From the NCBI GenBank assembly GCA_050084515.1, contig CM114271.1:41540001-41604000 (forward strand): a stretch of 64,000 nt of DNA, given 5' to 3'. Numbering within the stretch: the stretch's first letter is position 1; every line of letters begins with the position of its first letter. A program made the position numbers and the translations under genes. Below are positions 1,188 through 47,600 of the stretch, piece after piece. The notes below the pieces were generated by a model. That model saw only the letters and a list, made by a program, of their open reading frames with translations, was not told where the DNA came from and did not search any database. Source of the DNA: Blasia pusilla (Eukaryota).

Positions 1188-4100
1188 ATGGAGGCTTGGG
1201 AGCCAGATATGGGCCCTAAGCTGACAAGAGGAGAGCAGCGCTGGATACACCAATTCCTTAGGAGTTATAAGAGTTTTTTTGGATTTGGCATGCATGATTT
1301 GGGTATGTTGAAGGGTCCAGGGATCCGCATTGAGTTGTTGAGCGACACGCCAATCTTTCGAAGATCCTACAAGTATAGTGACATGGAGAGGGCTCTGATT
1401 CAGAGTAGGAGCCAAGACTTGGTTGAAGTAGGACTAGTGGAGATGTCACATGGGGAGTATATATCTGCCACTATCATGCCTGCCAAGAAGGATGTGCATG
1501 GCAACAGGACGGATAGACGGACGTGTGGAGATTACCGACCTATCAATTGGGAGAAAAAGTCCGATAGGTATGCCATGCCCACCCTTGAGGATGTCTTTGA
1601 TGCGATTGGGCATGCAAAGGTCTTCAGTTCATTTGATTTGCAAGTCGGATACCATCAACTGCCTATGAGATTGGAGGACAGGCAGAAGATGGCATTTTGG
1701 GACTTCAATCCTCACGGGAAGGATTGTTTGTACCAGTGGCGGTTCTTACCATTCGGGTTAAAGAACGCCCCGGCTGAATTTCAGAGGGTCATGGATAGGA
1801 TCTTGGCAGGTCTGGATTTTGCTAGGTCTTATATTGATGACATCGTAGTCTTTAGCGCCATGGTTGAGGAACATGAGAGACATCTAGAGGAGGTGTTTTG
1901 ACGATTACAGTTGCATGGGATGAAGCTACATCCAGGCAAGTGCAAGTTCTTCTATGACCAGATTGAGTGTTTGGGTCATACGATATACCCAGGGGGCCTT
2001 GGTGTGCAGCACACAAAGGTAGAGGCTATTTCACGCATTCCACGCCCTTCAAATGTGAGTCCAGTTTGTGCATTCATGGGATTGGTGAACTTCTATCGAT
2101 GGCACGTCAAGGGTTTCAGCTCGATTGCAAAGCCGCAAACCTTGATGACCAAGGTGGATCAGGAGTGGCACTGGGGGGATGAGTAGGAGAGATCATTTCA
2201 GATGCTCAAGGACAAATTGACGTCTGTGCCCATATTGAGGAGACCGATCAGGGGGCGTCCTTTTTAGTTGCATACCGATTGGAGCATGTTGGGGCTTGGA
2301 TCCGTTCTCACCCAGCACGACGATGATGGTAGAGACTTTGTGCTGGCTTACACTAGTCGCTCAAACAACATTGCAGACGCAATTTATAGCTCGTATGAGG
2401 GTGAGTGCTTGGCTGCAATGTGGGTTGTCGCACATTTCAGACGTTATCTATTTGGCAATCCCTTTACCATAATTACTGGTCATCAGCCACTTAAGTGGTT
2501 GATGGAGTCCATCAAGCTTATAGGGAAGCTGGCGAGGTAGGCTCTTTTGTTGCAGGAGTATGACTTCAAGATGGTGCATAGACATGGGATGCTCAACCTG
2601 GATGCAGATGGTTTTAGCTGTAACCCATGCCCGAGTTAGCCAGATGCGAGTGGAGCTCGTTGGCATGATGAGAGTGATGAGGAGTTGGTGCCAAAATGGC
2701 TTGCGTCAGCCTATTTAGGCTTGTTGGCTATGGAGAGCCACATTGTTGAGACTTTGATGGCGAGGTCTAATGGAGAGTCCTTAGATCCAGAGACCGGCGA
2801 GAAGATGATAGGTTGGCGAGACATTCACAAAGATGGAGTGGTCTTGGAGTACCTGTGTATTGGCAGCGTCGCGAGCACAATGGGTGCTAGAGAGCGGGAT
2901 CGGATCCTATAACGAGCCAAACAGTTCTGGTGGGAGAGGACACATGTGTTGCGAGTGTGGGAGGATGATAGAGTGAATGTAGTGCCTCATCCTTTGCAGA
3001 GAGCACGTTTGGTGCGTCATGCCCACGAGGAGTTGGGTCATTTTCTAGTGAAGCGGACGTATAGCTTGCTCCATATTCAATATTGGTGGCGAGGCATGCA
3101 GACTGACGTTAGCACTTTGTTGCCAGATGCATGGTGTGTGATTGAGTCCAAGCATCGCTCAATGCTCTAACTCAACAGTTGCATCCACTTCCGATCATGG
3201 GTTTTCGTTAAAGATGGAGTTTGGATTTTGAAGGACCTTTGCCTTTGACGGAGCGCCATAGTCGTTATGTGTTGGTGATGGTCGAGCACTTCTCGAAGTG
3301 GATAGAGTTGGTTGTATTTCCTGACAAAGCAAGTGAGGGAGTAGTGTATGCCTTCCTAGATCAAGTGTTGAGTCATTACGGCGCACCAGCTGAGGTGTTG
3401 ACAGACTAGGATACCGAGTTTTGAGGGGAGTTTCAGGCCTTGCGTGATCAGATACTGATCAACCACCGCACCACTTCGCGAGATCATCTTGAGGCGGATG
3501 GACTAGAAAAGAGGGTTGTGCAGATGATGAAGAGAGGATTACCCAAGTATGGCTTGCAGAGAGGTCACCTAGCAGATTGGGATCTTCAGTTGCCGTGGTT
3601 GGCGATGGGATACAAATTCAGAAGGCAGGCATCCTTAGCATCTTTCTCACCATACTTGCTGCTTTATGGTCGTGAGCCACATTTACCTACGGCCATTTGT
3701 CAAGATGTTAGTGAGGTGTTGAACCTTGATGACCATGATGTACGGATGAGAGCATGTTCACAGAGGGTTGAGTGATGCCCATGGCGTTTGAGAACTTAGC
3801 GATTGCGCAACATCGGGATATATTAAGATATGCGACTATTTGGGGAGGTGGTTATCGACCTACTATCTGGAGGTTTCATCAAGGAGACTATGTCTACTTG
3901 CAGCAGACGGCACCCATGACGTTAGATGTGACTATAAGACCCACCATCTTGAGAGTGCGTGAAGTTTTTCTATTAGGTGTTCTCTTATTAGAGAGACGTG
4001 ATGGTATGGTTTGGAAGGACCATGTGCGTAACTGTACGCCGTGTCACCTTCGGAACATTGACGGTACAGTTGATCCGAGCTTAGCAAGAGTTTTTGCAGG

Positions 4101-4248
4101 CTTGCGATGTATGTTGTGTGGTTATGCCCGTGGTGCAGCCACTATGCTGTTATGTGATGGATGTTCAAGAGGATGGCATATGGCATGTTTGACGCCACCT
4201 CTCATTAGGGTTCCTCAGGGACGATGGATGTGTCACAAATATACATAG
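1188..4248 (+). pseudogene. pol of copy 1: reverse transcriptase, RNase H, integrase, PHD finger
   Basis: LPFGLKNAPAEFQR..YIDDIVVFS; HTDWS..YSSYEGECLA; HAHEELGHF; DFEGPLP..VLTD; CMLCG..MLLCDGCSRGWHMACLTPPLIRVPQGRWMC. Confidence 0.93.
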
Positions 4249-5175
4249 CGTAGGTAGTTCTACATTCCGACTTGTGTCTGTGACATGGATGACAAAAAGG
4301 CGACTAACGATGGGGCCACATGAGCACCCGACCTTCTTGCTCTTAGATTCCGAGAGATGTATGTCATGGTAGGTAGGGGTAGATGGCTATCTGGAGTTAG
4401 AGGGATCTAACCACTAGCTATGGGGGCTATTGGAGATATTTTGGTACTTCTTGTCTCATTTTTTGGATGCCATGAGTTAGCATGGGATCGTGCGTGTTTG
4501 TGTGTGTATTCGATGAAAGCGATGTATGTTGTGTAGCAATATGTATGCGCACGATAATTGTCACGTCTTTTAGGATAGATCGATGAGATCTAGTAGAGCA
4601 CCTTCGTGAGTAGTGGAGGACAAACTCAGGAGGTCTAGGATGACCTACTGAGGCCCCGAGAAACCTGAGCGAGCAGGTTTCCCCTTCGTTTCGGCTCATT
4701 TGAAGCCATGTTGAGAAACTTACTAGTTTAGGTAAGTACCATTTTGAATATATGGTTAACTTTCTAATTTTGGTAAGTGATCCTTGACTTCCTTCATTAT
4801 GTCAAGAGCCAAGGAGGTGACTTGAGAGCATAGGTTACCATGGAGAGAGCTTGGGAGAGGTGAGGGATATACCTCAAGGAGAGAGAGCTTGAGACCTCAT
4901 TCTCTCTTTGTTCAACCTCTTGGCATGAGGCGGCGGAGCTATGGTCTTGCTTGCCTTGTGTGTGTAATCCAAGCCTCTCATTAGGAGAGTGGGTTTGGTT
5001 TGACATTGAGAGAGACATGTGAGAGTGCACACATTTGAGAGCTATGGTGTTGAGAGAGATTGGATTTTGATTAATTGGAGATATTTTGGTACTACTTGTC
5101 TCGTTGTTTGGATGCCATGAGTTAGTAGGGGATCGTGCGTGTGTTTGGTGATAGTGATGTGTATGCGCACGACAA

Positions 5176-5617
5176 TTACCTTTGTATAGTAGCATCCTTT
5201 GTATGTTGTATTATGTAAATTCAACCATTATGTTAACCTATCCATTACAGCATTCACCGATTAGTAAAGTATATTCAATTGTATATTGTATACTTTCCAA
5301 GCTATACTTTCATATGCTATATTGTCTCTTTTTGTTTGTATTGAAGGCCTACGTAGTGTCTTCCTTGGATTGAAGACTCACGTTATCGTAAGCGTCTCCC
5401 GTGGTTTGTATTGAAGGCCTAAGTAGTGTCTCCCTTGGATTAAAGACTAATATACACAACCACAAAATTGGTCTCTCTGAAGACTAGATACAAATTTTTA
5501 TATTGTGGGTGTCTAGATTAAATCTCCCACTATATTTGCTCTTGTTGAAGGTCTTAGAGTCTTGTGTAGTCCTCCATTGCAATTTCCACTTTCTCACCTT
5601 CAAAATAGGTAGCGACA
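5176..5617 (+). mobile_element. Probable 3' part of an unrelated LTR into which copy 1 inserted
   Basis: Internal short direct repeats (TTGTATTGAAGGCCTA..GTAGTGTC..CCTTGGATT twice) and an LTR-like end GGTAGCGACA. Confidence 0.4.
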
Positions 5618-9574: not shown

Positions 9575-10385
9575 CATGGTTGCACAAAAATGACAAGTCC
9601 CATCCTTACGACGAAAATGGACCGACAAGTCTTGACATGTCCACGGACATGGGTTCTAAGAGGTGGGACCCACACTTATAGTCCATGATGGAAGGCAAGG
9701 CAAGGAATGAGGGAGGAGGGAGTGGAGGTGGAGGGAGGTATAAATGGGGGAGTATGGAACACGAAGGCAAGTAAGGGGAAACAAAAAAAAGGGAAAGGTG
9801 GGGCCAATATGGACAAGTCCTTCCATAGGACGCACATGGACTTTTTCCACATGCAACCTTCCTTGCAGACGTGGTCACGGCCCAATGCAGGCTACAAACC
9901 GAGGACGTGTTCTTAGACTGGTTGCGGCCTGGCCGATCTTGGGTCTACCTTGCGGACAGGGCGGACTACGCGTACCCAAGCCCGTATGGATATGTCCATG
10001 GTTGCACAAAAATGGACAAGTCCTTCCTTAGGACGGACATGGACGGACAAGTCTAGACACTTCCACTAACATTGGTTCCAAAAGGTGGGACCCACACTTA
10101 TAGTCTATGATGAAAGGCAAGGCAAGGATGAGAGGAGCAATAAGGGAGGAGGGAGTGGAGGTGGAGGGAGGAAGAAATGGGGGAGTATGAAACACAGGGG
10201 CAAGTAAGGGGAATGAGAAAGAAGGGAAAGATGGGGCCCATACTGACAAGTCCTTCCATAGGACGGACATAAATCCACGGAAATGGATATGTCCATGGAC
10301 ATAGACTTTGTCCACATGCAACCTTGGATATGGCTGTCCTACGGACGAAGATAAGTCCACGAACATATCCGTGTGCAACCTTGGG
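9575..10385. repeat. Tandem duplication of a ~410-bp unit within a repeat family that also has related sequence at ~12970-13460
   Basis: GGTTGCACAAAAAT..GACAAGTCC...AGGTGGGACCCACACTTATAGTC.ATGATG.AAGGCAAGGCAAGGA occurs at ~9578 and ~10000; CATGGACTTTTTCCA.TGCAACC motifs recur at ~13428. Confidence 0.8.
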
Positions 10386-10442
10386 GTAGGTTAAACATGG
10401 TAGGTCAACAATAACCTATTTAAGAGTAAGTGCAATTTAGGG

Positions 10443-10647
<205 letters not shown>

Positions 10648-10699
10648 GCACACAAACACTCATGGAGCTTTATATTGGTGTAAGACATACTTCTATTTC

Positions 10700-10828
10700 A
10701 TTGGAGATATTTTGGTAGCCACTCGCCTATTATATTTGGATTTTGTGCTTGAATACTTAATCTTTTGTTCAATCTGTTTGATTAGTGACATAGTTTTATG
10801 TTGTGTAGCAATGTGTGTACGCATAACA
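10700..10828 (+). repeat. Diverged B-type terminal repeat of the split-repeat retroelement family
   Basis: Starts ATTGGAGATATTTTGGTA and ends TATGTTGTGTAGCAATGTGTGTACGCATAACA, matching the start and end of B. Confidence 0.65.
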
Positions 10829-13800: not shown

Positions 13801-16459
13801 CTAGTTGGGGCTTCCAAGAGCCAAACCAAGTATTGAATTTGGAAGTCTCAAGGTTAGGAACTCTTCATAATGCAAGTAGGGAAGAGTGGAGGTCAAACTC
13901 TCTCATGATATCCCCCTTCCCTCCTTGAAGGAATCTCTTGTCGTATGAAGGAGATAGATGGGGAGGGGTATGTAGCATCCTCCTAAGGAGATTTGGTGAA
14001 ACCCAATCATGCATTTTGGCCAAATTTTCGAGAGTGAGGATCACTGTAGGATGTTATGATTACTCTTATACTCTTTGTCACTTATATTGGATTTTTCAAG
14101 CCACAGACTCGTTGAGAATTTACATCAAATATTTCTTAGTATTATCATGCTATATTCATAATTCCTCCTATTTTCCCTCTAGATACCCTACATCTTTCTC
14201 ATTGTTCGAGGATTTTTGGGATTTTTTTCTTAACCATTCCAAATTGGAGAGACGTGTCACGTCTTTTAGGATAGATCGATGAGATCTAGTAGAGCGCCTT
14301 TGTGAGTAGTGAAGAACACGCTCAATAGGTCGAGGATGACCTGTTGAGGCCCCGCGAAACTTGAGAGCAGGTTTCCCCTTCGTTTCGGCTCATTTGGAGC
14401 CATATTGAGAAACTTACTATTTTAGGTAAGTACCATTTTGAGTCTATGATTGAGTTTTTATTTTTGGTAAGTGGCCCTTGACCTCCTACATCAGGTCAAG
14501 AGCCAAGGAGGTGACTTGGGAGCATAGGTTACCATGGAGAGAGCTAAGGAGAGGGGAAGGTATACCTCAAGGAGAGAGAGAGCTTGAGAGCTCATTCTCT
14601 CTTTGTTGAACCTTTTGGCATGAGGTGGCGGAGCTATGGTCTTGCTTGCCTTGTGTGTGTAACCCAAGCCTCTCATTAGGAGAGTGGGTTTGGTTTGACA
14701 TTAAGAGAGACATGTGAGAGTGCATACATGTGAGAACTATGGTGTTGTGAGAGAGATTGGATCTTATTTTACAAAGAGAGAATGAGTGAATGAGAAAGCT
14801 TCATGGGGGAGCTCGATGGTTGCTCGATGTTTGGTGCAGGTTGGGGGACAGTGTTCCCCACTTCATGGCTCATGGGAGTGCTCACCGGAGCAACATCCAT
14901 GCGAGTTTTCTGTTTTGCTTTGCTGATTTTTTGTCGGAGAATGGCACGCGGAAGCGCTGCCCAATTTTTATAGCAATTGATTATGGGGGCGGATTGCTCC
15001 ATGCTGATGCTCTCAAGAGCACCATATAGCTGGCTGATTTTTTTCTCACATGTTTTACATTTTCGTTGGGAGAAATCAGCGCGGAAGTACTGCCAAATTT
15101 TGGGTAGGAGAAAGAGACATTGGGCTTTATGACAATCCCTGTCACTTTTTACTGGAATTTTTGATTCAAAATATTTTTTAATTTTATTGTAGACCCTAAA
15201 GTTTTGCACGCAATAAAATAAACGGTGCGCAATTTGGAGTGGCGAGCAAAAAGTTATGGTCAATCTTGCAAAACTGCCATTGCTAGGCAATTTTGAGGGT
15301 TAAATTGTTCTAACCCTAAACCAGCCACCGCGCCGGCGGAGGCCGTCGCCGTCATAGTCATCCTCAACGGTCAACAATCACCATCAAGGGTCAACCGTCA
15401 CTATCCATCGTCGGCCGTTGCCGTCGCCTAGCACTGCTCGGAGCCGCGTTGAACCGTGATCCACCCTTTGATTGTTATTGCCGCCATTACGGAGTGGAGG
15501 GTCTTCCACGACCACCGTTGATTCTCTGACTTGTGCCGCCACCACGTACTTTGGTTTGGCCACCACCATCATCGTAGATCCATCATCAACCAGTGATGGC
15601 AGGTGACCTTGGGTTATGGTGTTTGAGTTTTCATTTCATGTTGCTATGTTGTGATTGGTAGCCGCTCGACGACGATCGAGTAGCTTGCGTCACGCCTGTA
15701 GCCGCAACGCGTTGTCGATTGCGGTGCCGTGCCACTCATGGCCGCACCGCACCATCTCGATCATGGAGCCGCTCTTCACTAAGGAGCAGAGCGTGTGAAT
15801 TGCTGATTGAGGAGGGTATGCCGCCGAGTGCCGCACCCCATTCTCGAGCGTCGTGCCATTTGTAGTTGTTACGTGTCGCCACTGTCGCATCGGAACTGTT
15901 GGACATGCACCGCACATCGAGGAGGTTTGAGCAGCATCAGTACAAGAGGAGTACAACTTGCTGATTGGAGGAGTTGTCTCCACGACCGAGTTGGGGTTGA
16001 GATTTGCAGTTGCCGAGGAGCGACATCGACATTATTGTCAATTATCCATTCTAGTCTCTTACCCTGCACGTGTGAAGGATTTTTGGGTATTGGGAAGTTA
16101 TTTGGGATTTTGGGTTTCGTGTTGATGCTAGGAGCATTGATGATGTATGGGCTTAGGGAACATAGACCTGTGTGGGATGTCGAGTTGAGGATGGTTTGTC
16201 GATGAGACGATAGATCAATTGATTTGCCGCACCACGTTGCTTGTTGCCGCACAACACACGTCTCAGTAAGAGAGTGTAGATTGAGTGTCGCATTTTTTGT
16301 TTGAGTGATTGAGGGATTACTCACGAGATTGAGAGTGATCGTGTGTGAGGGGCACGAGGGCCATCACGGTGTCCTTTTAGGATTTTGAGAGGCGAGGTAG
16401 TGGACCTAAGAGTAGCTCTGGAGGGTTTACCCGGAGTGGTGCAAGGTTTTGAGGGTCTC

Positions 16460-18020
16460 CACGTAAGAGACCACCTCGATCTCCTTGTGTGTCATCTTCA
16501 GACAAGGGAGAGTGCATAGAGGAGTGTGTTAGTGATCCACCGTACACATTCAGTGGTCCTACCAGTTGGGCGTACGAGATGGACGACTGGGATAGAGGAC
16601 CGCGTAGGTTTTTGGGTGCTGTAGGCACCATAGAGCTACACGACTTCAGTGCGGAGTTTAGGAGTTGGTGTGACTCCCAGCGGGCTACGAACTCTAGAGA
16701 GTTCAACCCGTTTATAGCATAGAACGGTACGTTCCAAGCATTTAGAGGGGGCGCCCATGGACGATTACCATGAGTTCTCCCACATATATGCCCAAGAGAT
16801 TAAGGCATTGCGACTCTACTATGACCCACATTATATGTCATGGACGGAGCCGTTCCCAGATGAGGAGGAGGAATCAAGAGAGGCTACTTTCTCTTCCACT
16901 AGTGATGTTTTAGGAGGGGTCACTCGCACTGGAGCAGTTGCACCGTCTAGTCGGGTTCGTCCCAGGTTCAACCCCGTGGTTGAGTTCTTTGCTGAGTTGA
17001 GGGCAAACTACCAAGGGGTACAGACTGAGAAGTTGTGGAGCATCCACGACTTCCAGAGGCTCCCGGATGAGAGCTTGGGTGAGGCTTACACTCGCTTGCA
17101 CCAGTTGATCAACGTCACTCAGGGGATGACAGAGACTCGGGCTATCTAGTCATGGTACGCGATGTTGGACCGGACCCTTCGCACATGGGTGCGGGAGGGA
17201 TGCTTCTTATTGACACCTCCCCTACCTTGAGAGATGTTTTTAGGACTGCCGAGAACATTGAGCGCAACATGGCGGAGGAGAGCGTAGCCACCATGGGTTC
17301 TGGGCGAGAGCAGTCACGATCGTCTGCACCATCTATGCAGCAACGTGGACTTTGAGATAGGTTGAGTGTGGCACCACGAGCTTAGGGAGGATATCCGGAG
17401 GCCCTGCCACAAAGACCTACGCCTTCATATGCGGATCAATAGCAGCCGCCTACGATTACTTGTTGGTGATGTGGTGGAGCCCATCATCAGCGTGATTGCA
17501 CTCGTCAGGGTAATGGACCTGTGCCTGAGCATGCAAGAGGAGATGGTGTTGCACCAAGAGGTTATCAGTGTGACTATTCTCAAAGATATGGTCATACATG
17601 CACCTGATGTTTCAATTTACATCCTGAGCTACGTCCCGACCGAGGGCCAGAGAGGGCACCAAAGCGAGTAGCCGTCCGGGTGGGCCTAGAGATTGTGCAC
17701 CAAGTGGTCCCGTTTGGGGATGAGGAGATGGAGTTTCCTGACAGGGTGGTGGAGCTGCCCGTGGAGGAGGTAGAGTCCTACCACCTAGACGCATCGAGGG
17801 ATACGCCGGGCGTGAGGCTGGGATGGCTTCTCAGATACAGCAGCTACCGGAGCAGATTGCCGCTATGGCATTGAGGTTACTCGATACAAGATCCGTGGCA
17901 TCGACATCATATGGAGCAGCCAAAGATATGGAGGATCTTGGTTGGATGTGCGGGGTTGCCCAAATGGAGGCAGCTGCAGTTGTGATGCGTGGAGCAGCTG
18001 TAGAGTTGGATCCCTAGCGA
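16460..18020 (+). pseudogene. gag-like region with two zinc knuckles
   Basis: FQRLPDESLGEAYTRL (retrotransposon gag major-homology-like); knuckles CW*CGGAHHQRDC and CDYSQRYGHTCT*CFNLHPELRP at ~17460-17635. Confidence 0.75.
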
Positions 18021-18496
18021 GGGAAGGCCAAGAAATAAACTAGGCTTCCTGAGTCTTTCATGTTGTCTGAGATGATGAGGACCCCATTGATGGGTCCTGA
18101 TCAGAGTTCCTAGAGAGTTGGTGATGTTGTTGGTGTGCAGGCACGGAGGACGATGGGAGAAGCGAGTGCGACAACTCCTGATGATGCTCAGGAGGGGCAT
18201 ATGTCGAGCATATTTTGGGGGTGGCCACTATTGTGTATCGTGCTCCTTTATTTTCTGCTTCCGATGTTATGACGTTGGGAGGTACGCTCACCGAGTTTTT
18301 TCTGCTGGCCGCTACGCTATGTGAGCGTGGAGTTGGAGTTCCTCCATCACGTTCAGAGGTGATTGAAGAGGAGGTGATGGACTTGCCCTTGGAGCAAATG
18401 CTCGAGCCATCCACGTCAGATTCATGGCAGGTTGCGGCTGCTAGGATGGCGAGAGATGCCCGCTAGACCCGTGATAGAGCGTGCCATGGGTTCTCC

Positions 18497-18660
18497 TGGT
18501 GTTGTGTTGCTGGATAACCGAGGAGAGGTCTTCTAGTTGGTGAGTCCCAGAAGTATAGCTTTTAGTCCGAAGCACGTCTTGTTGGATTCATGAGCGCAAC
18601 CCCTGATGTTGGGGAAAGCGTCATTTAGAGTATTGGTCTTGACAAGAGCCGATGTGGAGG
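18497..18660 (+). pseudogene. Aspartic protease remnant
   Basis: GVVLLDNRGEVF*LVSP..KHVLLDS*AQPLMLGK, a degenerate LDSGA motif; truncated by a deletion that runs into DNMT motif I. Confidence 0.7.
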
Positions 18661-19590
18661 GATCAACACTAGGTTAGCTGCTATTTTGCACATTGGAGTG
18701 TGCGTGCAGCAATACCTGTATGTGGAGATTGATGATGTTGTGAGGCACGCTTCACTTAACCATGTGGTGTTGTAACTCCTCTATTTCCCCGACTTGTTGT
18801 CTGCGTCCGCCATTCAGGCTTACCAGAGTTCCCTACCGAGGGACATTTCATTGTTGGGGGCGTAGGACTTGGAGCGGGTAGGGACCATAGACTTGGTCAT
18901 TGCTGGTTGGCCGTGTCAAGGAAAATCGAGTGCTAGACAAGGTAGCAGGTTAGCTAACACTCGGTCTAGGTTGTTTTGGGAGATGATGCGGATCTTGCGA
19001 CATTTACAAGAGCATTAGCCTCGTTCTCCAACATACATTTTGGAGAATGTGCCAATTTTGGGCAATTCGAAGTCCCGCGTGGTGATGAGTGCACATCAAG
19101 TGCGCGCATGGATTGGCTTGGCAATGTTGTTAGATGCGGTGGTGTGGGTTCACGAGCACATTGCCGGCGTCTTTGGTGAACCAACTTGGTACCACACGAG
19201 GTGTTACAGAGGGCATATGCAAGAGTGGAGCGCCCCTCCGATTTGTTGATGGATTCTATATTGGATCCATGCCGTTGATCACAGGAAGTGAGGCTAGATG
19301 ATGGACCTCCGTTGATTGTGGTCTACAGGATTGGCAGGCCATGGGCAACCTTTCCCACATTGGTGAGTTTTCTCGCTTCCTATGCATTCAAGGAGGCCGG
19401 ACCTGGCTTGGTTTGGGATGACCAAGTACAAAAGTTGGTGGAGCCCAACGCCGATGAGCGAGATCGAGCGATGGGATTCCCCACAGGAGTGATAACAGGA
19501 GTGTCACTATCAGAGGCATCACGACGTCATGTCTTGGGTCAGGCGATGGACCTGAACTGCTTGACATGGATTTTGAGCTTAGGAGTAGCT
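18660..19590 (+). pseudogene. C5 cytosine DNA methyltransferase domain in retroelement copy 2
   Basis: GINTRLAAIL (tail of motif I), YLYVEIDD, IDLVIAGWPCQG, YILENVP, EPNADERDRAMGFP, RRHVLGQAMD. Confidence 0.9.
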
Positions 19591-19890
19591 GACCGGCGTT
19601 GTTTGAGGATACGACAGATCACAGTTGTTGCGTTGGTGAGCCCCATGCCTACCGAGGCGGTTGAGGCAGTGGCTAGGAGCGAGACCCAAGGAGATCGACA
19701 CACCAGGGATGATTGGGAGAGACACCCTTGGACTTCTTAAGATGTTTGGCAGGTACGCCAGGAGATGATAGCCATAGCATCGAGTGTGGTTCCGGGTACT
19801 GCACGTGGAGATGAGAGTTCTATTGTCTGAGACGGGGTTGCACCATATCAACCACCGACACCCGCGCCGGAGAGTCCTACCGTAGTCACG

Positions 19891-22800
19891 ATGGAGACTT
19901 GGGAGCTAGATATGGGCCCTAATTTGACAAGAGGAGAGCGGCGCCGGATACACCGGTTCCTTAGGAGTTATAGGAGCTATTTTGAATTTAGTATGCATGA
20001 TTTGGGTACGCTAAAGAGTCCAAGGATCCGCATTGAGTTGGCGAGTGACACGCCGATCTTCCGAAGACCCTACAGGTATAGTGACATGGAGAGGGCTCTG
20101 ATTCAGAGTAGAATCCAGGACTTGGTTGAAGCTTGACAAGTGGAGATGTCGCATGGAGAGTATGCATCTGCCATTATCATGCCCGCCAAGAAGGATGTGC
20201 ATGTCAACTCGACGGATAGGCGGATGTGTGGAGGTTACCGACCTATCAATCGACAGACGAAGTCCAATAGGTATACCATGCCCACCGTTGAGGAGATCTT
20301 TGATGCGATTGGGCATGCAAAGGTCTTCTCTTCATTGGATTTGCAAGTCGGATATCATCAGTTGCCTATCAAATTGGAGGAGAGGCAGAAGACGAAATTT
20401 TGGGGCATCGATCCTCACGGGAAGGATTGTTTGTATCAGTGGCGATTCTTACCATTCAGGTTAAAGAGCGCCCTGGATGAGTTTCAAAGGGTCATAGATA
20501 GGATCTTGGCAGGTCTCGATTTTGCAAGATGTTATATTGATGACATCGTAGTCTTTAGCAGCACGGTTGAGGAGCATGAGCGACATCTAGAGGAGGTGTT
20601 TCGACGATTGCAATTACATGGGGTGAAGCTACATCCAGGCAAGTGCAAGTTCTTCTACGATCAGATTGAGTACTTGGGTCATACGATATACCTTGGGGGG
20701 CTTGGTGTGCAACAAACGAAGGTAGAGGCTATTTCACGCATTCCACGCCGTACAGATGTGAGTCGAGTTTGTGAATTCATGGGATTGGCAAACTTCTATC
20801 GACGGTACGTCAAGGGTTTCAGTTTGATTGCGAAGCCGCTAACCTTGATGACCAAGGTGGATCAGGAGTGGCACTGGCGGGATGAGCAAGAGAGAGCGTT
20901 TCAAATGCTCAAGGACAGATTGACCTCCGTGCCCATATTGGAGAGCGATCAAGGGGCGTCCTTTACAGTTGCATAGCGATTGGAGCATGTTGGGGCTTGG
21001 AGCCATGCTCGCCTAGCATGATGATGATGGTAGAGAGTTTGTGGTGGCTTATGCTAGTTGCTCGAACAACGTCGCAGAGGCAAAGTATACCTCGTATGAG
21101 GGTGAGTGTTAGGCTGCACTATGGGCTGTTGCACATTTTAGATGTTATCTATTCAGAAATCCCTTTACCATCATTACTGATCATCAGCCACTTAAGTGGT
21201 TGATGAAGTCCGACAAGTTGACAGGGAAGCTTGCAAGGTGGGCTCTTTTGTTGCAAGAGTATGACTTCCAGATGGTGCATAGACCATGGACACTCAACCA
21301 GGATGCAGATGGTTTGAGCCGTAACCCATGCCTGAGTCAGCGAGATGCGATTGGAGCTCGTTGGCATGGTGAGAGTGATGAGGAGTTGGTGCCAGAATGG
21401 CATGCGTCAGCCTATTTGGGCTTGTTGGCTATGGAGAGCCAGATTTATGAGACTTCGATGGCGAGGTTTGATGGAGAGTCCTTAGATCCAGAGGTCGGTA
21501 AGGAGAGGACAGGTGGCCGAGACATTCACGACGATGGAGTGATCTTGGAGTACCTACGTACTGGCAGCGTCGCGAGCACAATGGATGCTAGAGAGCGGGA
21601 TCAGATCCTATAGTATGCCACACGGTTCTAGTGGGAGGGCACACATGCATTGCGAGTGTGGGAGGATGGTAGAATGCGTGTAGTGCCTCATCCTTCGCAG
21701 AGACCATGTTTGGTGCGTCATGCCCACGAGGAGTTGGATCATTTTGGAGTGAAGCGGGCGTACAGCTTGCTCAAGATTCAATATTGGTGGCAAGGCATGC
21801 AGACTAACGTTGAGCACTTTGTTGCGAGATTCATGGTGTGTGATCGAGTCCGAGCATCGTTCAATGCTCCAACTCCACAGTTGCATCCACTTCCGATCAT
21901 GGATTTAGGTTATAGATGGAGTTTGGATTTTGTAGGACCTTTGCCTTTGACGGAGCGCCATAGTCATTATGTGTTGGTGATGGTCAAGCACTTCTCAAAG
22001 TGGATAGAGTTGGTTGCATTGCCTGACAAAGCGAGTGAGGGAGTAGCGTATGACTTCCTAGATCAAGTTCTGAGTCATTACGGCGCACCAACAGAGGTGT
22101 TGACAGATCAGGGTACAGAGTTCCGCGGGGAATTTCATGTCTTGTATGATCAGGCACTGATCGACCACCGTACTACTTCGCGAGATCATCCTGAAGCGGA
22201 TGGACTAGAGGAGCGGGTTGTGCAGACGGTGAAGAGAGGACTGCGTAACTATGGCTTGAAGAGAGGTCACCTAGGAGATTGGGACCTTCAGTTGCCATGG
22301 TTGGCGATGGGATACAGATTCAGAAAGCACCCATCCTTAGCGCCTTTCTCACCCTACTTGTTGCTTTATGGCCGAGAGCCAGATTTACCTCCGACCATTC
22401 GTCGAGATGTTGGTGAGGTGTTGAACCTTGATGACCCTGATGTATGGATGTGAACATGTTTTCAGAGGGCTAAGTTGTTTCGGAGAGTGATGCCCATGGC
22501 GTTTGAGAAATTGGAGATTGCGCAACATTAGGATACGTTGAGGTATGTGACTATTTGGGGAGGTGGTTATCGACCTACTGTCCGGAGGTTTCATCAAGGA
22601 GACTATGTCTACTTGCAGCATACGGCACCTACGACGTTGGATGTGACTGCATGGTGCACCATCTTGAGAGTGCGTGAGGTTTTGCCATTCGATGTTCTCT
22701 TATTGGAGGGACGCACTGGTATGGTTTGGAAGGACCATGTGCGTAATTGTGCGCCATGTCATCTTCCGAACATTGACAATACAGTTGATCCAAGCTTAGC

Positions 22801-22954
22801 AATAGTTCCTACATGCTTGCGGTGTATGTTGTGTGGTTCAGCCCATGGTGCAGCCACTATGCTAGTCTGTGATAGGTGTTCGAGAGGAGGACATATGGCA
22901 TGTTTGACGCTACCTCTCACTAGGGTTCCTCAAGGACGATGGATGTGTCCTTGA
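19891..22954 (+). pseudogene. pol of copy 2: RT, RNase H, HHCC+DDE integrase, PHD finger
   Basis: YIDDIVVFS; TDHQPLKWL; HAHEELDHFG..CDRVR; SLDFVGPLP..LTDQGTEF..DGLEER; CMLCG..CDRCSRGGHMACL..VPQGRWMCP. Confidence 0.94.
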
Positions 22955-25900
22955 TGTACATAGAGTAGGTAGTTCTACATTCCGACTTGTGTCTGTGATA
23001 TGGATGACAAAAAGGCGACTAACGATGGGGCCACATGAGCACCTGACCTTCTTGCTCTTGGCGTCCGAGAGATGTATGTCATGGTAGGTAGGGATAGATG
23101 GCTATCTGGCTAAGGGGGCGATTGGAGATATTTTGGTACTTTTTGTCTCGTTTTTTGGATGCCATCAGTTAGCATGGGATCGTGCGTGTTTGTGTGTGTG
23201 TTCGATGACAGCAATGTATGTTGTGTAGCGATGCATATGCACAGGACAAGTGTCACGTCTTTTAGGATAGATCGGTGAGATCTAGTAGAGTGCCTTCGTG
23301 AGTAGTGGAGGACACGCTCAATAGGTCGAGGATGACCTGTTGAGGCCCTAAGAAACCTGAGAGAGCAGGTTTCCCCTTTATTTCGGCTTATTTGGAGCCA
23401 TATTGAGAAACTTGCTATTTTAATTAAATACCATTTTGAGTATATGATTGAGTTTCTATTTTTGGTAAGTGGCCCTTGACCTCCTACATCAGGTCAAGAG
23501 CCAAGGAGGTGACTTGGGAGCATAGGTTACCTTGGAGAGAGCTTGGGAGAGGGGAGGGTATACCTCAAGGAGAGAGAGCTTGAGAGCATTCTCTCTTTGT
23601 TGAACCTCTTGGCATGAGGCGGCGGAGCTATGGTCTTACTTGCCTTGTATGTGTGACCCAAGCCTTTTATTAGGAGAGTGGGTTTGGTTTCACATTGAGA
23701 GAGACATGTGAGAACTATGGTGTTGTGAGAGAGATTGGATTTATTTTATTGGAGATATGTTGGTACTTCTTGTCTCGTTGTTTGGATGCCATGAGTTAGC
23801 ATGGGATCGTGTGTGTTTGTATGTGTGTTCAGTGACAGCGACGTATGTTATGTAGCGATGTGTATGCGCACGACAAGAGCCCATTGTTGGAATTTAACCA
23901 AATAAGTCGATCTAATACTCGTTATTGTTATGTTTGCTAGAAGAGTTGTAAATCGTCTAATTCATATTCCCTACAATCCTCCCTATGGCATAAATTTTCA
24001 TGGTCTAATCTTTATACCTACCATCAATTCTAGTAATATATGCATAGCATAGCTTTTCTCTCGATGGGCTACCACTTATGAGGCTAGGTTAAACATTGGT
24101 CATCCCAAAAGGAATTTCCCTAATCTCCAACCCCAGTTCAATGTTCTTCAAGAGGTCCATAATGAATGAAAATATTCCCATACAAAAGATCAATATGGAG
24201 AACTTTGAAGTTTGCACTTGTCATTGTGTCAATGGTTTTTGTGGTACTAAGAAAGACGATCATGATTTGGATGACATTCTACTCACTATATGAGCATTTC
24301 ACTTTGTTTCAATCAATTAATTTTAGAATGGTTGAATTGAATTCAAGAGTTTTTTTTTAGAATTTGTATCTCATAAAATTTTGTAGCATTCTTCAAAAGG
24401 AAGTCTTTGACATTCATTGGGCAGATCAAAACCAAATTACCTCGTCCTTCTTACGCAAATATTCCTAAAAAAAATTTGGGAGGAGCCTATTAATGCAAAG
24501 GCCTTCATATTCTCCAATATGTACATGGAGAGAGCAAATGAAAATCCATAACATGATCAAAGACATACTAACATCAAACCAAAGTCGCAATTGACCAATC
24601 ATCACATCATCGGTCCACTTGTAATGATTAATTAGTGCTTGTTTCAATTTTTTCTAATTTCTTGGTTTTTCTTGGGTTATGCTTTTCAATTTACCTCATT
24701 TAAATCGTTACCTTTCTTTTGGATTCCTTGCTGCATTTTCAATCCTTTTTTTTTCCTTTCCTTATGATATTTTTCTAGCATAACAAATTGTAAACTTGCA
24801 ATACTACTTATTGTGCCTTGTATAACCTACTGAAAATATTTAATAATTTTTTTTAAATAGTTGAAACTTCAAAACGAAATTCACAAGATAAGATTTAACC
24901 TTATTTGTTTGAATACCTAAAATTAGATTCATATTAGTATTACCAATATGACAATCCAATTACCAATAAACCCCATTTCTTAACTAGTAAATTCATCCAC
25001 CCACTCTTCTTTTACTAAAAAGAGACTTTAATGTATTTAAGAGATCATGATTATTTTGTATAGATCTATGTTATCATTGGAGAATGCATTCTTAATTTGC
25101 TAACACCTATCTGCATGACATGTCACAACCGGGCAACATTAAAGTATTTCCTCTTCTCCAAGCAGGAAAAAAACTCTTTTTTTACCAATATGATAAATCC
25201 CATTACTCCACTAGTATAAGTCAACTGAAACTCTTTAAAGTCAAATGCATTCCATGATGCACTGGAAATTACATAATTACTGGATTAGAAAACCTACATT
25301 CGCAACAATCATTCATCCATCCCACATTTCTACACCTAATCGGAGAGCTGCACTCTCTTGCTACGCTACATTCAGAAAAAATTGCACTTACTTGACCTTC
25401 CTACTCTTTGGAAAACATACTTAGTTCATTTACCCTGGACCCTGACACACCACACCAAGCACGTGGTTCAGCTCTTAGAGGTGTTAAGGGAGAGAAGGGA
25501 AAGCAAGGCCCATTGGATAAGTAAGGCCTCCATGCTGGACACGGTTGTTATGTGAACAATGTACCCTCGGAAATGGAAGCCATAACATCTGTAACATCAA
25601 CCCAAACACATCATCACCCAGCATACTTACTCATTCTCGCATCCTCTTACTCCTTCGATACTCTTGGACCAGTACATATTGTGAAGCCTTTTAGTCCTAG
25701 CGCGTCTGCATCATATCCTTACTTTCTCTCATTCCATCTACATGTCAGCATTTTCACAGACTTTGCTATCCTGAAGGCCAGTGGACTGTTCAATTTTGCA
25801 GCACCAACATAAGGGCGAGCGTGAAAAATGCCGCCAAGTTCACAGATAATCCCAATTGCTGTACTTGACGACGTAGTTATGCTCTACCCCTCATCCAATA

Positions 25901-32100: not shown

Positions 32101-34103
32101 ACACCTACTTTGATTGGTGATGATAAACTGTTTTACGAAAACAGTGGGAATCCCTGTAAGAAAGGTAATCATAAGCACCTCTTGCATAAAACTACTACAC
32201 TAGGTTATGTTTGAGCCACTCATGCCAGATGGAGCGTTGGAGACAGTCCACATTATTGAAAACTTGTCTGCATGGTTTAGTATCTTCTCACCAGGTCACA
32301 GGACAATCATCAACAAAGTGCCTTGAAGCTTGCCTAACAAGGTACAATTAGGACTGTTTACCTTCCACAGTTGCTAGTCATTTACAGACTTTACGACCAG
32401 TTGTGTAAGAATTAAGATGCAGAATACTCTCTAAGTTTTGCAGTCTGTTCAACTCCAAATAGATGTCCTCTATAGTAAAACCTATTTACTTTTCATGGCA
32501 TCTACTGCAATTTCTGACTGCAATCAGAAGTTGATTCGCAAATCTATTGGCTGATGTGTTTAGAAGTCACGAATAAAAAGTCTCTACTTTGGATGTCTTC
32601 CTGGTTGTTGCATACCATCATCACTATCTAGAAGCTGATGCAGATGAAACCTTCCGGTTAAAAGATGGTGGGTGGGGGTGGACATTTGAGACAGTGGGAC
32701 GTACAGTTGCCATGGTTTCCTATGAGGTATCACTTCAGTCACCAAACATTTTGGTATCATTTTTGCGATACCTTTTACTCTATAGGAGAGAGTAAGACTT
32801 ACCTACAACTATTCCATGTGATATGACAGGTGTTGACCCTTATGACCCAGATGTATGGGTGCAAGCATGTTATCAGATGGCGGACATTTTTCGTAGAGTT
32901 ATGCCTACACTGAAGAAATTCTCTCGCTATTTTGTTGCTGCACCGTTTCATTGTCTTGAACTGCCTGCAAGTATCTTTCTTGATAAAAAATATTCTTAGC
33001 TAATAGTATGCCAGATGCCCATCAATGTTAAACTAGAATTTTTACAGAAGGTCTACTGTCTGGCGACCATCTTCGACATAACAAGAAGCCAACCTTCCTC
33101 ATAGAACGTATTCTGTTCGACTCGAACTCATCTTTACTGTGGAGCCAAAAAGACACATTTGCTGGATACGGAACTAGAATTGCGATGTGATGTGGACGAA
33201 ATGATAGGCATCCCAGATTCAATAACTGACCTGCAAGTCGTTTTATTGGTACCAAATGTTATCACGTCTTCATTCTTTAGCTGAACCATGCTCTCCGGAG
33301 ACGAATTTACGGGTTTTGAGGAAACCTCTTTATTAATAAAGGTACCAAACTTTGAGAGGTCCTTCAGGTGTATATTGCTGCGGGGCCCTAAATCATGGCT
33401 CGCTTCAGCAAGACATTCAACAACGGCTGGCTCCACAATTATCTCTGCGTGAACTCTGGATATTGTTTTGTCTGTCTGGACTGTTATACTGCAGTCTGCG
33501 AACAAAATTGGCATTATACAACTCCGACGGCTTCTGGTTTTGACTATGAACTGAAGAAAGTGCCTCGTAACGTGCGTAGCGAGTTGCAAAACGAAACTTA
33601 AGAAAACTCCACTTGAGAGAGTCTATGACACGTTGGGCCTTACTTGGAGGGAAACGGACCACGATTCTGGTCAAAAAAGTAGGATTACATATGAACATAT
33701 GAACATATGAACTTTACGATGTTAGCGTACCTTTTCGGCCCACCGTATATGTGCCAGGAGCTGTGAAGTAGTAGCTTCCATTGCCTGCAAAGTCTAGCCA
33801 TTGGGAACCAGGAGTCAATTCCCGGGCTCCAAAACCATCAGTCTTGTCTACATGCAATCTCTTGGGCAAAAATCGAATAAATGACTACCGAAACAGAGTT
33901 AATCAAAGCATTCCAACGTCCACATCCTTACCCCCAGTGCTGATCTCCTAAGGGAATCGAGAGTAAGACGCCTACATTTAGTTGGCCCCAGAACATTGAG
34001 CCTATATTTTACACGGAGCAATCCATCAGAAATCTCATCGGGAAAGAGATGCAGGCGGCGTACCAGTAACGACAGATTCCTCGAATGTCACGAACCACAC
34101 CAT
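26158..34103 (-). CDS. NBS1: Nibrin/NBS1 (MRN complex; FHA + BRCT + C-terminal Mre11-binding motif), multi-exon
   Basis: Exons 34103-34064 (MVWFVTFEESVVTG), 33784-33731 (YYFTAPGTYTVGRK), 33495-33231 (DKTISRVHAEI..KDLSKFGTFIN..ITFGT, FHA), ~31969-31880, ~31557-31429 (CTHLLVEE..WLQ, BRCT), ~31107-31056, ~29737-29617, ~29507-29154, ~28970-28110 (NFKRFKR), ~27759-27699 (GNSFSSLVPFAKEPY), ~26659-26560 (KQEKKRK..EELF) and ~26229-26158. Internal boundaries are approximate. Confidence 0.9.
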
Positions 34104-38247: not shown

Positions 38248-39870
38248 TGGCATGCGCATATACATCGCTACACAATTCACATAGTTGGTCATCTCTACAC
38301 AACACTAATTTTCCCAACACATGGGTAGATCCACACACACACACTTTGCACTCACGTACGCATATACGCCAAGACCACATAACCCTCCCCTAATTGGCAA
38401 TTGGGTCCCCCTAATGCCAGATCACACATCTCACATCCACCCGACATGAATTAGTACCCTATACACATCTACCAACGATGGTGATGTCATGCGTGTAATA
38501 TGCTAATATGTGCTCACCTTCAGATCCATCTCATCTATCTCAACCAAGAGATATCGATGTATCCACACGTCGGCCTACAACACTACAACTGACCTCCATG
38601 TTAATCCCTCCAAAAAGGTCTAACACTCTCAATTACAAATCCTCCTCCAAACGCTACCACACAACAAATGTGGTATCCAAGGAGATCAAGTCCCCACTCC
38701 AAGAGCACAATCGTCACATGACTTTGTCTTCTCTTCTATAAAGGCATATCTTCACGCTTGCCTTACGAGCTCCTCTACACTCCTTTGCAAGTCGATGCTT
38801 GTAGGGACCCAAAAATAGTGAAGAGGTCTTCGCACCATAGGAAGAGACATGTATACCCACTATGCCATGTCTCTCCATGGAACTATCTGCTACAAGGATG
38901 TCCTCTACATAGGTGCTCTTTTTTTAATAACTCCCTCGTCATCTACTCACAACTCGTAAATGCTACCAACATGGTTACAACATCACATCATGGACCACCA
39001 ATACACCTTGCAAACCACATAGGTAAATGGCTCACCCACCCATCACACAATTTCCACCCTTGTCGACAGGAAAATGTCTCTTGCCAAAAACTGAAGGATG
39101 AAACCAAGGGCGTACATCACCATACTCCCCACAACACATCGTATGAATCTATCAATAATGTAATCACACGACTACGCACCATCGCACCATTTGAAGCATA
39201 CTTTAATTGGAGCTTGAAAAGTAGCTCCTATTAAGTCATATATTGTATGGAGGACATGCCCCCAATAGAGGTTTGTATTTGAAAGGGACAAGACTCAATG
39301 TTGGCTTTCCATAACGTCAATGCTAAACAAGCCGCCTTCCTTAACATCAAGAGTCAAGTAGGAAGTATTGTCTTTGATACACCATACCTGTGGGACTAAC
39401 CATGCAGAACATCCCGCTCTTGTTGTCCAATAACACTACATGAGATGTCACAATGGATTGCTCTATTGTTGGTCTAGCTAGGTGGCATGTCTTCCAACTT
39501 AGTCGTTATAGCCTACCATAACTCAATTGGGAATATCTTGAGCACTTGCTTTGAGGATAGGTCCACCACACCTCAACAACTATCTCTAAAGAAGAGGAAA
39601 TTACCTCTCCACTCTCACATAGCATGGCGGCCAACCGGAACACCTTGTTGGTCTAACTCCCACTGCCACCAAGTCCATGGTAGAAACAAATAGAGTTTGG
39701 CTTACCTTAGTGGCCACCTCCTCTTGCATATCAATCTCTAGTGTTGCCGAAGCATACGTTCAGTATGACACACTCTCACTGTTGATGTACATCCAAACAC
39801 ACTCACGTTATTCTAGTCTGGGTCAATCAACTTTCCAATTGCCCGAGTCTTTGCCTCAGGCTATTCATCA
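38248..39870 (-). mobile_element. Degenerate relative of the split-repeat retroelement (protease remnant, purine tract, single B)
   Basis: Minus strand VVLLDNKSGMFCMVSPTG..FLLDS at ~39350-39440 is homologous to 18497-18590; GGGGAGGG tract at ~38383-38390; B-like end TGTGTAGCGATGTATATGCGCATGCCA at 38248. Confidence 0.6.
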
Positions 39871-46600: not shown

Positions 46601-47600
46601 CAGACATCCTACACGAGAAAAGCGAAAGAGGGAGACACCCGGTTCCTCCGAGGGGGGAGGGACAAGAATGTTTTCTATACTTCCTCATCGTTGGGGAAGC
46701 ATAGGGATTTAGCAGCAAAAATCACCATTTTGTTGCAATAGACATCGCTGCTGGAAGAATTGGAGAAGTTCTCAGCACACGAGTCCACGCCTGCCTTGGA
46801 GAAGTTGACACTATTGGGACGTGAGCTTCTGCAAAGCGGCCATGCCCCATCGACCATCAATGGGGTCCATGAGGAGGTTGTAGTTGACCTCCTCATCGCT
46901 GATCTACCGTCGGGGCTCAGATTGTGGGCAAAAATTTCACACGACACAGTTTTGGATTTGAACACTCCATTCACATATGACCAGATCGGGAAGATGTTCT
47001 CCTTTGCCAACGCGTATCTTAGTGACACCTGATGTTTCCTAGTTTTCATCGGAGGAAGCAAGGATGGGCTCTGCAACTTGCAATGCATGAAGCAATCATT
47101 GAAGTGGAAAACCGTGCAATCTTGGGTAGTGAAGAATGACTACCCACTAAAATCGGCTTCAAACCAAACCTTGGTTAGTTCGATAACTTAAACCCGCAAT
47201 TGATTTTGTTCTTTCCTGCAACCCGTCGGACTCCGACGGGTTGCAAAACCCAGCCTAGAAAGGGAGTGTGTCCTGCAACCCGTTGGACTCCGACAGGTTG
47301 CAAAACACACGCCAGAGTGTGAGTGGGTCCTGCAACCGGTCGGACTCCGACGGGTTGCAAAACCCAACCCCGAAAGGTTGTGTTTCCTGCAACTCGTTGG
47401 ACTCCGACGGATTGCAGCACCCACCCTAATAGGCCTTACCATAACCCCTGCAACCGGTTAGTCTCTGACGGGTTGTATATGGGCAACACTTTGGGTATCC
47501 ACGGATGCTGGGCAAAGCGTCTTAATGCTCAAAGACCCCTAAAAGAAAATTGCCTCGGTGACATCTTTCAATTGCAACCTGTCGGATTCTGTCGGGTTGC
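40695..47600. repeat. Clusters of a 29-bp palindromic repeat TGCAACCCGTCGGA(N)TCCGACGGGTTGCA
   Basis: Roughly 30-40 degenerate copies by eye, in clusters at ~40695-41640, ~42500-42775, ~44305-45150 and ~47217-47600; perfect copy at 47217-47245. Confidence 0.92.
41782..42479 (-). pseudogene. Inverted paralogous 3' fragment of the amino-methyltransferase-like gene
   Basis: DKSPALMQTLIELCSRPGDLVFDLVGLLGASIRGAWYSGRNILCLE, then a GTGAGT donor at ~42108 and a probable further exon at ~42027-41782. Confidence 0.75.

Follow-up and report, generated by a model that had tools for sequence, protein, structure and literature searches.

Hosts hold transposons in check chiefly by cytosine methylation, and a transposon that carries a cytosine methyltransferase of its own is for that reason a paradox. 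The question is raised by a stretch of 64,000 nucleotides from Blasia pusilla (GenBank assembly GCA_050084515.1, contig CM114271.1, positions 41,540,001 to 41,604,000 of the forward strand; hereafter the window, numbered from its first letter), in which two copies of a retroelement each contain a C5 cytosine methyltransferase (DNMT) domain. Does the domain belong to the element, where does it come from, and what might the element do with it? The best explanation of the whole, to which we give a probability of about 0.8, is that two decayed members of a high-copy liverwort Ty3/gypsy family lie in the window, a family that represents the bryophyte branch of the Gypsy-DNMT3 kind known from the alga Klebsormidium. 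The identity and anatomy of the element are near certain; that its enzyme would methylate cytosines in element DNA or in insertion-site DNA is a tentative proposal, drawn from sequence and a structural model, to which we give about one chance in three.

Two decayed element copies

Two copies of one Ty3/gypsy-type retroelement lie on the + strand of the window; a direct-repeat comparison finds them 84-91% identical per 300-nt block. Copy 1 is cut off at the window start and extends to ~5202, and copy 2 occupies ~14254-23877. The features of the two copies are listed below; P0018 is an intact relative from the same clade as the window copies.

14254-14771, + strand: copy 2, 5' terminal repeat A1 (89.6% identity to 23250-23748 over 520 columns)
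16594-17224, + strand: copy 2, gag-like region (tblastn with the gag part of P0018)
18477-18659, + strand: copy 2, protease remnant (tblastn with the protease of P0018)
18653-19608, + strand: copy 2, DNMT3-like C5 methyltransferase, pseudogenised (PF00145; alignment to intact relatives)
18653-18670, + strand: copy 2, motif I, degenerate (CGGINT)
18713-18733, + strand: copy 2, YLYVEID
18905-18922, + strand: copy 2, motif IV, GWPCQG
19037-19054, + strand: copy 2, motif VI, ILENVP
19147-19161, + strand: copy 2, motif VIII region, GSRAH
19456-19482, + strand: copy 2, ERDRAMGFP
19534-19551, + strand: copy 2, LGQAMD
19828-19830, + strand: copy 2, in-frame stop TGA at the boundary between gag-protease-DNMT and reverse transcriptase, with the same reading frame on both sides
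20137-20976, + strand: copy 2, reverse transcriptase (RVT_1, PF00078, E 2.1e-23)
21113-21613, + strand: copy 2, RNase H (RT_RNaseH, PF17917, E 1.8e-15)
21632-22453, + strand: copy 2, integrase, zinc-binding and core domains (Integrase_H2C2, PF17921, E 2e-11; rve, PF00665, E 2.3e-12)
22532-22954, + strand: copy 2, post-integrase region with a PHD finger at its end (PF00628, E 2.8e-10)
23121-23250, 23250-23748 and 23748-23877, + strand: copy 2, 3' repeats B1, A2 and B2 (split direct repeats)
82-976, + strand: copy 1, DNMT3-like domain, pseudogenised (PF00145, E 4.2e-13)
82-102, + strand: copy 1, YLYVEID
273-290, + strand: copy 1, GWPCQG
405-422, + strand: copy 1, ILENVP
516-530, + strand: copy 1, GSRAH
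824-850, + strand: copy 1, ERERAMGFP
902-919, + strand: copy 1, LGQEMD
1437-2237, + strand: copy 1, reverse transcriptase (this and the next three by tblastn with copy 2 domains)
2412-2699, + strand: copy 1, RNase H
2931-3748, + strand: copy 1, integrase
3817-4233, + strand: copy 1, PHD region
4429-4557, 4559-5068 and 5074-5202, + strand: copy 1, 3' repeats B1, A2 and B2 (split direct repeats)

A first-pass annotation, made from the letters alone, had reported ordered C5 methyltransferase motifs in both copies, placed between protease (PR) and reverse transcriptase (RT), and had named a PF00145 search as a check. All of the motifs are present, and PF00145 matches both copies above its curated cut-off of 22 bits when stops are translated as X: 18599-19249 in copy 2 with 42.5 bits (E 7.1e-11) and 3-560 in copy 1 with 49.9 bits (E 4.2e-13). 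The C-terminal pieces of the domain searched alone gave no Pfam match at E 0.1; the translated pieces, including the C-terminal ones, align column by column with the intact relatives from motif I to motif X. The placement is also as described, with the PR remnant of copy 2 at 18477-18659 and its RT from 20137. Pfam places RT, RNase H (RH) and a DDE integrase (INT) in Ty3/gypsy order at 20137-22453, and found no chromodomain behind the copy 2 integrase, a place occupied by the PHD finger. Pfam also gave no match for three parts of copy 2, namely the gag-like open reading frame (ORF) 16718-17149, the ORFs from gag to DNMT, and ORF 19831-20136.

Both copies are pseudogenes, which the first-pass annotation had not stated. 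Stops interrupt the DNMT of copy 2 at 18773, 18863, 19016, 19177 and 19276, with a frameshift between ~19114 and 19147, and that of copy 1 at 435, 477 and 650, with a frameshift near 602-614. Neither window copy retains the open frame of an active C5 methyltransferase, which the intact relatives have; the GWPCQG and ILENVP motifs survive. The PR of copy 2 keeps an active-site stretch, VLLDS, at 18576-18590, followed by a stop, and the remainder is deleted, so that the tblastn match covers 183 nt only, against ~800 nt in related loci. Since 682 whole-genome DNA reads of the same species, coming from other copies, run beyond 18659 into different sequence, the deletion is private to copy 2. At sites where at least 30/100 DNA reads differ from copy 2, the changes from copy 2 to the reads are unequal: A>G (176) and T>C (134) far outnumber G>A (24) and C>T (35). 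Copy 2 thus carries A or T at positions at which G or C prevails among the copies, the pattern that would be expected from deamination of methylated cytosines. The CpG observed/expected ratio, 0.64-0.74 in element copies and 0.38-0.47 in host genes, gave no clear signal.

The ends of the element are unusual. Both window copies have a split B-A-B direct repeat at the 3' end, unlike a plain long terminal repeat; in copy 2, A2 is bracketed on either side by the 130-nt repeat B, and B1 and B2 are 88.5% identical. The full-length loci L044 and L032, from elsewhere, have only a plain repeat pair of ~340 nt. No terminal repeats were found in L030, and the ends of copy 2 show no recognisable target-site duplication. 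Separately from the two copies, an isolated third fragment at 38955-39463 on the - strand resembles the family protease; it has many stops and no Pfam match.

The methyltransferase in the element family and its relatives

Of 1459 candidate proteins, 9 were matched by the broken DNMT piece of copy 2: Marchantia polymorpha supplies five of these and Calypogeia fissa two, the others being an unnamed protein and a polyprotein of 1999 aa (35% identity). Uninterrupted gag-PR-DNMT proteins of 1159-1319 aa are present in Marchantia, in a Calypogeia-like record and in Klebsormidium nitens, and gag-PR-DNMT relatives are named in Marchantia (the element-borne Mp_8g17980, Mp_4g09160, Mp_6g11220 and others), Calypogeia, Sphagnum, Closterium and K. 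nitens. Uninterrupted PR-DNMT-RT-RH-INT proteins also occur, and one unnamed protein of 2188 aa contains CCHC, PR, DNMT, RT, RH and INT in a single ORF. Furthermore, metagenome contigs scanned with a profile of four intact domains yielded 64 loci, onto which seven domain queries were mapped: 54 of these have PR-DNMT and/or DNMT-RT, 3 have RT-RH-DNMT-INT-PHD, and 7 were too short or otherwise not assigned to an order. Where the upstream flank exceeds 900 nt (42 loci), PR precedes the DNMT in 41 (the exception is L040), and where the downstream flank exceeds 1400 nt (40 loci), RT follows in 36 (the exceptions are L022, L045, L046 and L047); in 12 loci, gag, PR, DNMT, RT, RH, INT and PHD all stand in order with constant spacing. 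These flanking counts exclude a nested insertion absent from most family members, which had been named at the outset as the finding that would overturn the idea. The DNMT belongs to the element and is present throughout the family.

As to the type of enzyme, a profile of the intact relatives matched, among solved structures, DNMT3A (3.5e-19), DNMT3B (~1e-16) and DNMT3C (3.4e-16), and more weakly tobacco DRM (1.4e-8), M.HhaI (5e-6) and DNMT2 (5e-5). An AlphaFold model of an intact family domain, built from a 9-sequence alignment, reached a predicted local distance difference test (pLDDT) value of 90.9 and a predicted template-modelling score (pTM) of 0.90, and the top Foldseek matches of this model were all DNMT3A/B/C catalytic domains (E ~4e-19, template-modelling score 0.81 by target length). 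Motifs I, IV, VI, VIII, IX and X stand in unrearranged order, and in nine aligned domains, from Klebsormidium, Closterium, bryophyte-type and unnamed members, the columns F-G-G, C-Q-G (PCQ), E.V, R.R and E-R-E..G are invariant. Pfam found neither PWWP nor ADD on seven element proteins, which have PF00145 and retroelement domains, with PHD/PHD_2 in addition in P0009. Sequence comparison and the model together point to a non-rearranged catalytic domain of DNMT3 type.

The family is far wider than the window. A search of 1.84 billion cluster representatives with the profile gave 10426 proteins at E <=1e-3; this number falls to 1964 at <=1e-10 and to 397 at <=1e-30, and the best 150 representatives all have E <=1.6e-61. 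We designated as type 1 those elements in which the DNMT follows gag/PR or precedes RT, and as type 2 those in which it follows RT/RNase H or precedes INT; BLASTP domain mapping divided the best 150 into 90 of type 2, 13 of type 1 and 47 with the DNMT alone. Named type 1 sources are K. nitens (GAQ93235.1 and two others), Closterium NIES-68/NIES-53, Sphagnum fallax (BDL97_09G086500), Calypogeia and many Marchantia genes. Type 2 elements, with the order RT-RNaseH-DNMT-INT-PHD (L059, L060, L061; P0009, P0054), are very diverse, and their named sources are the chlorophytes Scenedesmus sp. PABB004 ('pol', KAF8056149.1), Haematococcus lacustris and Monoraphidium neglectum; numerous proteins from metagenomes also belong here. 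A profile made without K. nitens sequences still retrieved the K. nitens protein P0141 at E 1.6e-68. No published description of RT-RH-DNMT-INT-PHD elements as a type was found in the literature searched.

Trees were computed from the element-borne domains, without host DNMT3 sequences. With FastTree on 154 domains, all 92 type 2 rows, along with 27 untyped ones, fall in one clade (99), and all 27 type 1 rows lie outside it. In a quick IQ-TREE search of 40 rows rooted on type 2, type 1 forms one clade with a Shimodaira-Hasegawa-like approximate likelihood ratio test (SH-aLRT) support of 98, within which are a Klebsormidium clade (100), a Closterium clade (99) and a bryophyte clade of 17 rows (95); the window copies are placed within an inner clade of 11 (99). 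The Sphagnum fallax protein is inside the clade with Marchantia, Calypogeia and the window copies, as sister to L005 (99), and because of this adjacency many of the metagenome loci are probably from a Sphagnum-like moss. The RT, INT and post-integrase PHD regions of the window element are homologous to those of type 2 (38-47% over ~143 aa for the PHD region), so the two types share a backbone and differ in the position of the DNMT. On these phylogenetic grounds, we take the window element to be the bryophyte branch of the Klebsormidium Gypsy-DNMT3 kind and not a new capture.

The closest described system is that of de Mendoza et al. 2018 (PMC5890265), in which DNMT3 domains in a K. nitens gypsy element were called an acquisition in that lineage. 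KnitGypsy-Dnmt3 and the window element have in common a Ty3/gypsy backbone whose polyprotein includes a DNMT3-type domain, intronless and non-rearranged, the orders gag-PR-DNMT and DNMT-RT-RH-INT (in GAQ93235.1 and other K. nitens proteins), membership of one clade, and signs of purifying selection, reported for the K. nitens domain as Ka/Ks <0.2 (PMC5890265). The Fig. 4c legend of that paper mentions Klebsormidium elements with a DIRS-like repeat structure, a remark that the split A1...B1-A2-B2 repeats of the window copies recall, although the comparison is with the legend and not the figure, and L044 and L032 are plain. The differences are that the host of the window element is a land plant, that copies are few in K. 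nitens and many in the window species, and that the DNMT of P0141 is only 37% identical to that of P0018. The chlorophyte-type elements have a homologous DNMT (35-41% identity), RT, INT and PHD region, but their DNMT follows RNase H and precedes integrase, whereas that of the window element stands between PR and RT, and they form a separate clade (99 and 98 in the two trees).

Other retrotransposon-borne cytosine methyltransferases are those of SymbioDIRS-Dnmt3 and SymbioLINE-Dnmt in Symbiodinium and of the EpiLTRs in Cymbomonas and Euglena; these differ in having DIRS, LINE and chromovirus-like backbones and other DNMT origins (PMC5890265; bioRxiv 10.64898/2026.05.21.726589). The latter preprint adds the Cymbomonas and Euglena elements to known cases that include 'streptophytes (Gypsy-DNMT3)', and places the EpiLTR domains as sister to DNMT4; it also states that chromodomains guide insertion. 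Chromoviruses share with the window element a chromatin-reader module fused behind the integrase, which in the latter is a PHD finger and not a chromodomain. Bryophyte host DNMT3, as in MpDNMT3b, has the same type of catalytic domain but is a multi-exon gene at another locus, and neither PWWP nor ADD was found in the seven element proteins scanned; MpDNMT3b (Mp5g09290) is treated as a host gene in bioRxiv 10.1101/2021.02.12.428880, the available text of which does not mention element-borne copies.

It had been proposed that a land-plant host would extend the range of DNMT-bearing retrotransposons. The extension stands: in full-text literature we found no report of such an element in a liverwort, a moss or any other land plant (subscription journals and supplements, including the survey of PMC5890265, were outside the search), and the text searched describes the kind only for dinoflagellates, Klebsormidium, Cymbomonas and Euglena. 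A separate capture in land plants does not stand, given the K. nitens architecture and the single clade. Public annotations of Marchantia, Calypogeia and Sphagnum already contain relatives, without comment on them.

Three other accounts of the origin and history of the domain have to be weighed. That the DNMT might have come into the window copies alone, by nested insertion, as a captured fragment or through chimeric assembly, is suggested by the degradation of both and by the internal deletion that adjoins the domain in copy 2, but the order and spacing recur in the informative loci (41/42 and 36/40) and in proteins of four named genera, and many further copies in the species have DNA reads across the domain, which makes this account scarcely credible. 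Independent capture of a host DNMT3 by land-plant elements, in convergence with Klebsormidium, would agree with the description of the Klebsormidium case as a K. nitens-lineage acquisition (PMC5890265) and with the recurrence of DNMT capture in other eukaryotes (PMC5890265; bioRxiv 10.64898/2026.05.21.726589); the shared gag-PR-DNMT-RT-RH-INT order in K. nitens proteins, the homology of the RT, INT and post-integrase PHD regions, and the single clade of the gag-PR-DNMT type (SH-aLRT 98, in a tree without host DNMT3) speak against it, and we consider it very unlikely. Horizontal transfer between mosses and liverworts, as a large contributor to the bryophyte distribution beside vertical streptophyte descent, is a more serious candidate, if still a minority one: the Sphagnum fallax protein sits inside a liverwort-holding clade next to L005, and the DNMT domains of these groups are ~71-79% identical. 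On the other side, the inner branches placing Sphagnum have a support of only 90, the tree is from one domain, and old paralogous element lineages with differential loss would give the same picture.

A conserved stop, transcription and the possible role of the enzyme

Of the 18 loci examined, 17 end the gag-PR-DNMT frame at one position with TAG or TAA and then CAA CCN (e.g. L005 1470-1478 and L019 4509-4517; loci L002-L044). Beyond this point, which lies 16 codons ahead of a conserved TWEP motif, the RT frame runs on in phase. The exception, L035, has TAG TAG a few codons off; over all 18 loci there are 12 TAG and 6 TAA. Intact proteins from Marchantia, a Calypogeia-like record and one unnamed source end at the matching position, and other type 1 lineages have a single ORF straight through (P0078). 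The conserved stop is a feature of the bryophyte clade, the clade compared here, and a possible difference from KnitGypsy-Dnmt3. UAG CAA, where the codon that follows is rich in pyrimidines, resembles the leaky-stop context of tobamoviruses; murine leukaemia virus makes its Gag-Pol by in-frame read-through. If read-through holds here, Gag, PR and the DNMT would be made together and would outnumber RT and INT.

Selection on the domain was estimated by pairwise Nei-Gojobori comparison of eleven DNMT regions, pairs with L035 being too diverged to compute. The ratio of nonsynonymous to synonymous divergence (dN/dS) is 0.72-0.96 for near-identical copies (dS ~0.05-0.07), 0.33-0.65 for intermediate pairs and 0.12-0.21 for L019 against nine others, the low values in deep pairs being rough since their dS of 1.6-2.4 is saturated. 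Such a gradient is commonly seen where active lineages are under selection and inserted copies then decay neutrally, and the domain looks constrained between lineages. The DNMT frame is open in L005, L007 and L019 of type 1 and in L059-L061 of type 2; the remaining type 1 loci have 1-10 stops in the best-aligned segment, except for the fragments L063 and L064 (110/334 residues).

The family is transcribed in this species. In three RNA-seq runs, from 6-12% of each run, 1334, 1389 and 1357 reads were aligned. Of these, 1144, 1180 and 1182 are only 90-95% alike, and 85, 81 and 88 at least 99% alike; at such similarity, most of the RNA reads come from other copies. First mates are mostly on the - strand (e.g. 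35.9 against 1.56 in bin 18416-18639 of one run), which under the usual stranded protocol indicates sense RNA. The RNA depth across the DNMT bins, 18640-19759, is 0-15. Also, a whole-genome run of roughly 2 Gb of reads gave summed depths of ~105-1230, indicating many copies in the genome.

From these findings, a working model of live members can be proposed. The family layout is gag-PR-DNMT, an in-frame stop, and RT-RNaseH-INT-PHD; the DNMT would be the C-terminal part of an abundant Gag-PR-DNMT product, and RT-RH-INT-PHD would arise from occasional read-through of the conserved UAG. The predicted enzyme would then methylate cytosines of the element's new DNA or of the DNA at the insertion site, which the integrase-linked PHD finger may choose by reading chromatin.

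Several points weigh against this reading. Both window copies are pseudogenes and cannot make the enzyme. The conserved TAG/TAA is a candidate site of programmed read-through, proposed from position and context; the corresponding stop of copy 2, at 19828, reads TGA, its context is not the conserved one and it falls in a stretch where other copies differ, and in most loci an ATG stands two codons past the stop, so that re-initiation is also possible. The RNA reads are transcripts and not protein, and could stem from silenced or read-through loci. The trees were quick or FastTree searches without bootstraps, and the low dN/dS values of the deep pairs are rough, dS there being saturated. Furthermore, yeast expressing the K. 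nitens domain showed no methylation; human DNMT3B failed as well, and the authors regarded the result as inconclusive (PMC5890265). In the same yeast assay, SymbioDIRS-Dnmt3 domains methylate CG de novo (PMC5890265).

The yeast result also bears on a rival view of function, in which the DNMT fold is kept for another task, such as RNA binding or methylation or a structural role in the particle. The location of the domain in the Gag-side product would suit such a role, and the motif X region, LGQAMD, departs from the usual pattern. We nevertheless find this view unlikely: the SAM-binding and catalytic columns (F.G.G, PCQ, ENV and R.R) are kept in Klebsormidium, Closterium and bryophytes, sequence and fold are nearest to the active DNMT3A/B, and the yeast negative is inconclusive by the authors' own control (PMC5890265). 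DNA methylation by the element's enzyme, the reading preferred here, can be carried into a wider scenario. One ancient green-plant gypsy lineage might have had a DNMT3-type enzyme and an integrase-linked PHD since before the chlorophyte-streptophyte split, the enzyme moving once, from the RH-INT to the PR-RT junction; still active in bryophytes, the lineage would obtain Gag-like amounts of DNMT by means of a leaky UAG, methylate its own new copies and contribute to bryophyte methylomes. As a whole, this scenario is an unlikely speculation.

The published plant-lineage case, in the text available, rests on one alga with few copies. The element type is abundant and transcribed in bryophytes, and it is present in Marchantia polymorpha, a model that is easily transformed and has good methylome resources; because of this presence, the use of the enzyme to the element becomes testable in a land plant. 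The 397 clusters at E <=1e-30 and the two architectures across green plants point to an old and successful strategy, not an oddity. The value of the finding is at the level of the family, an old, diverse and abundant kind of element in which a conserved stop puts the putative enzyme on the Gag side.

Host gene and other features of the window

The identity of the host follows from a neighbouring gene. A chloroplast-type aspartate aminotransferase (AAT) gene occupies 58162-62750 on the + strand, and nine of its segments match the Marchantia protein. A single exon shows 90% identity both to Marchantia polymorpha and to a fern, which alone decides nothing, and single exons or summed high-scoring segment pairs give 76-82% identity for liverworts and other land plants alike. 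In a 20-row tree of the whole protein, the window gene and that of Marchantia polymorpha are sisters (SH-aLRT 96), with 85% identity across 419 aligned columns, and the pair joins Calypogeia (87); mosses, ferns, seed plants and Mesotaenium fall elsewhere. The host, as judged from this tree, is a liverwort and hence a land plant. The first-pass annotation had supposed a land plant and had suggested NBS1 and ASP5 as the genes to check: the AAT tree bears out the supposition, and an FHA-domain exon at 33137-33622 on the - strand (Pfam E 3e-10) is consistent with NBS1.

Two further ORFs, 42108-42488 on the - strand and 47543-48166 on the + strand, are homologous to each other in opposite orientation (59% identical over 116 aa). 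Both resemble the C-terminal S-adenosylmethionine (SAM)-binding part of bacterial-type N4/N6 DNA methylases, as weak leads: the former matches PF01555 at E 0.012 with 16 bits, under the cut-off of 26.7, and the latter has a protein-atlas feature score of 0.92, with 24 of 30 matches in PF01555 clusters. These ORFs are of note because Marchantia sperm uses prokaryote-like N4-cytosine methyltransferases (bioRxiv 10.1101/2021.02.12.428880). Just upstream of them is an inverted repeat at 41054-41619, with arms of 113 and 84 nt that are 92-94% complementary. Elsewhere in the window, a GA-rich simple repeat at 10430-10828 on the + strand reads in one frame as an Arg-Glu run, and short direct repeats lie at 9575-10270.

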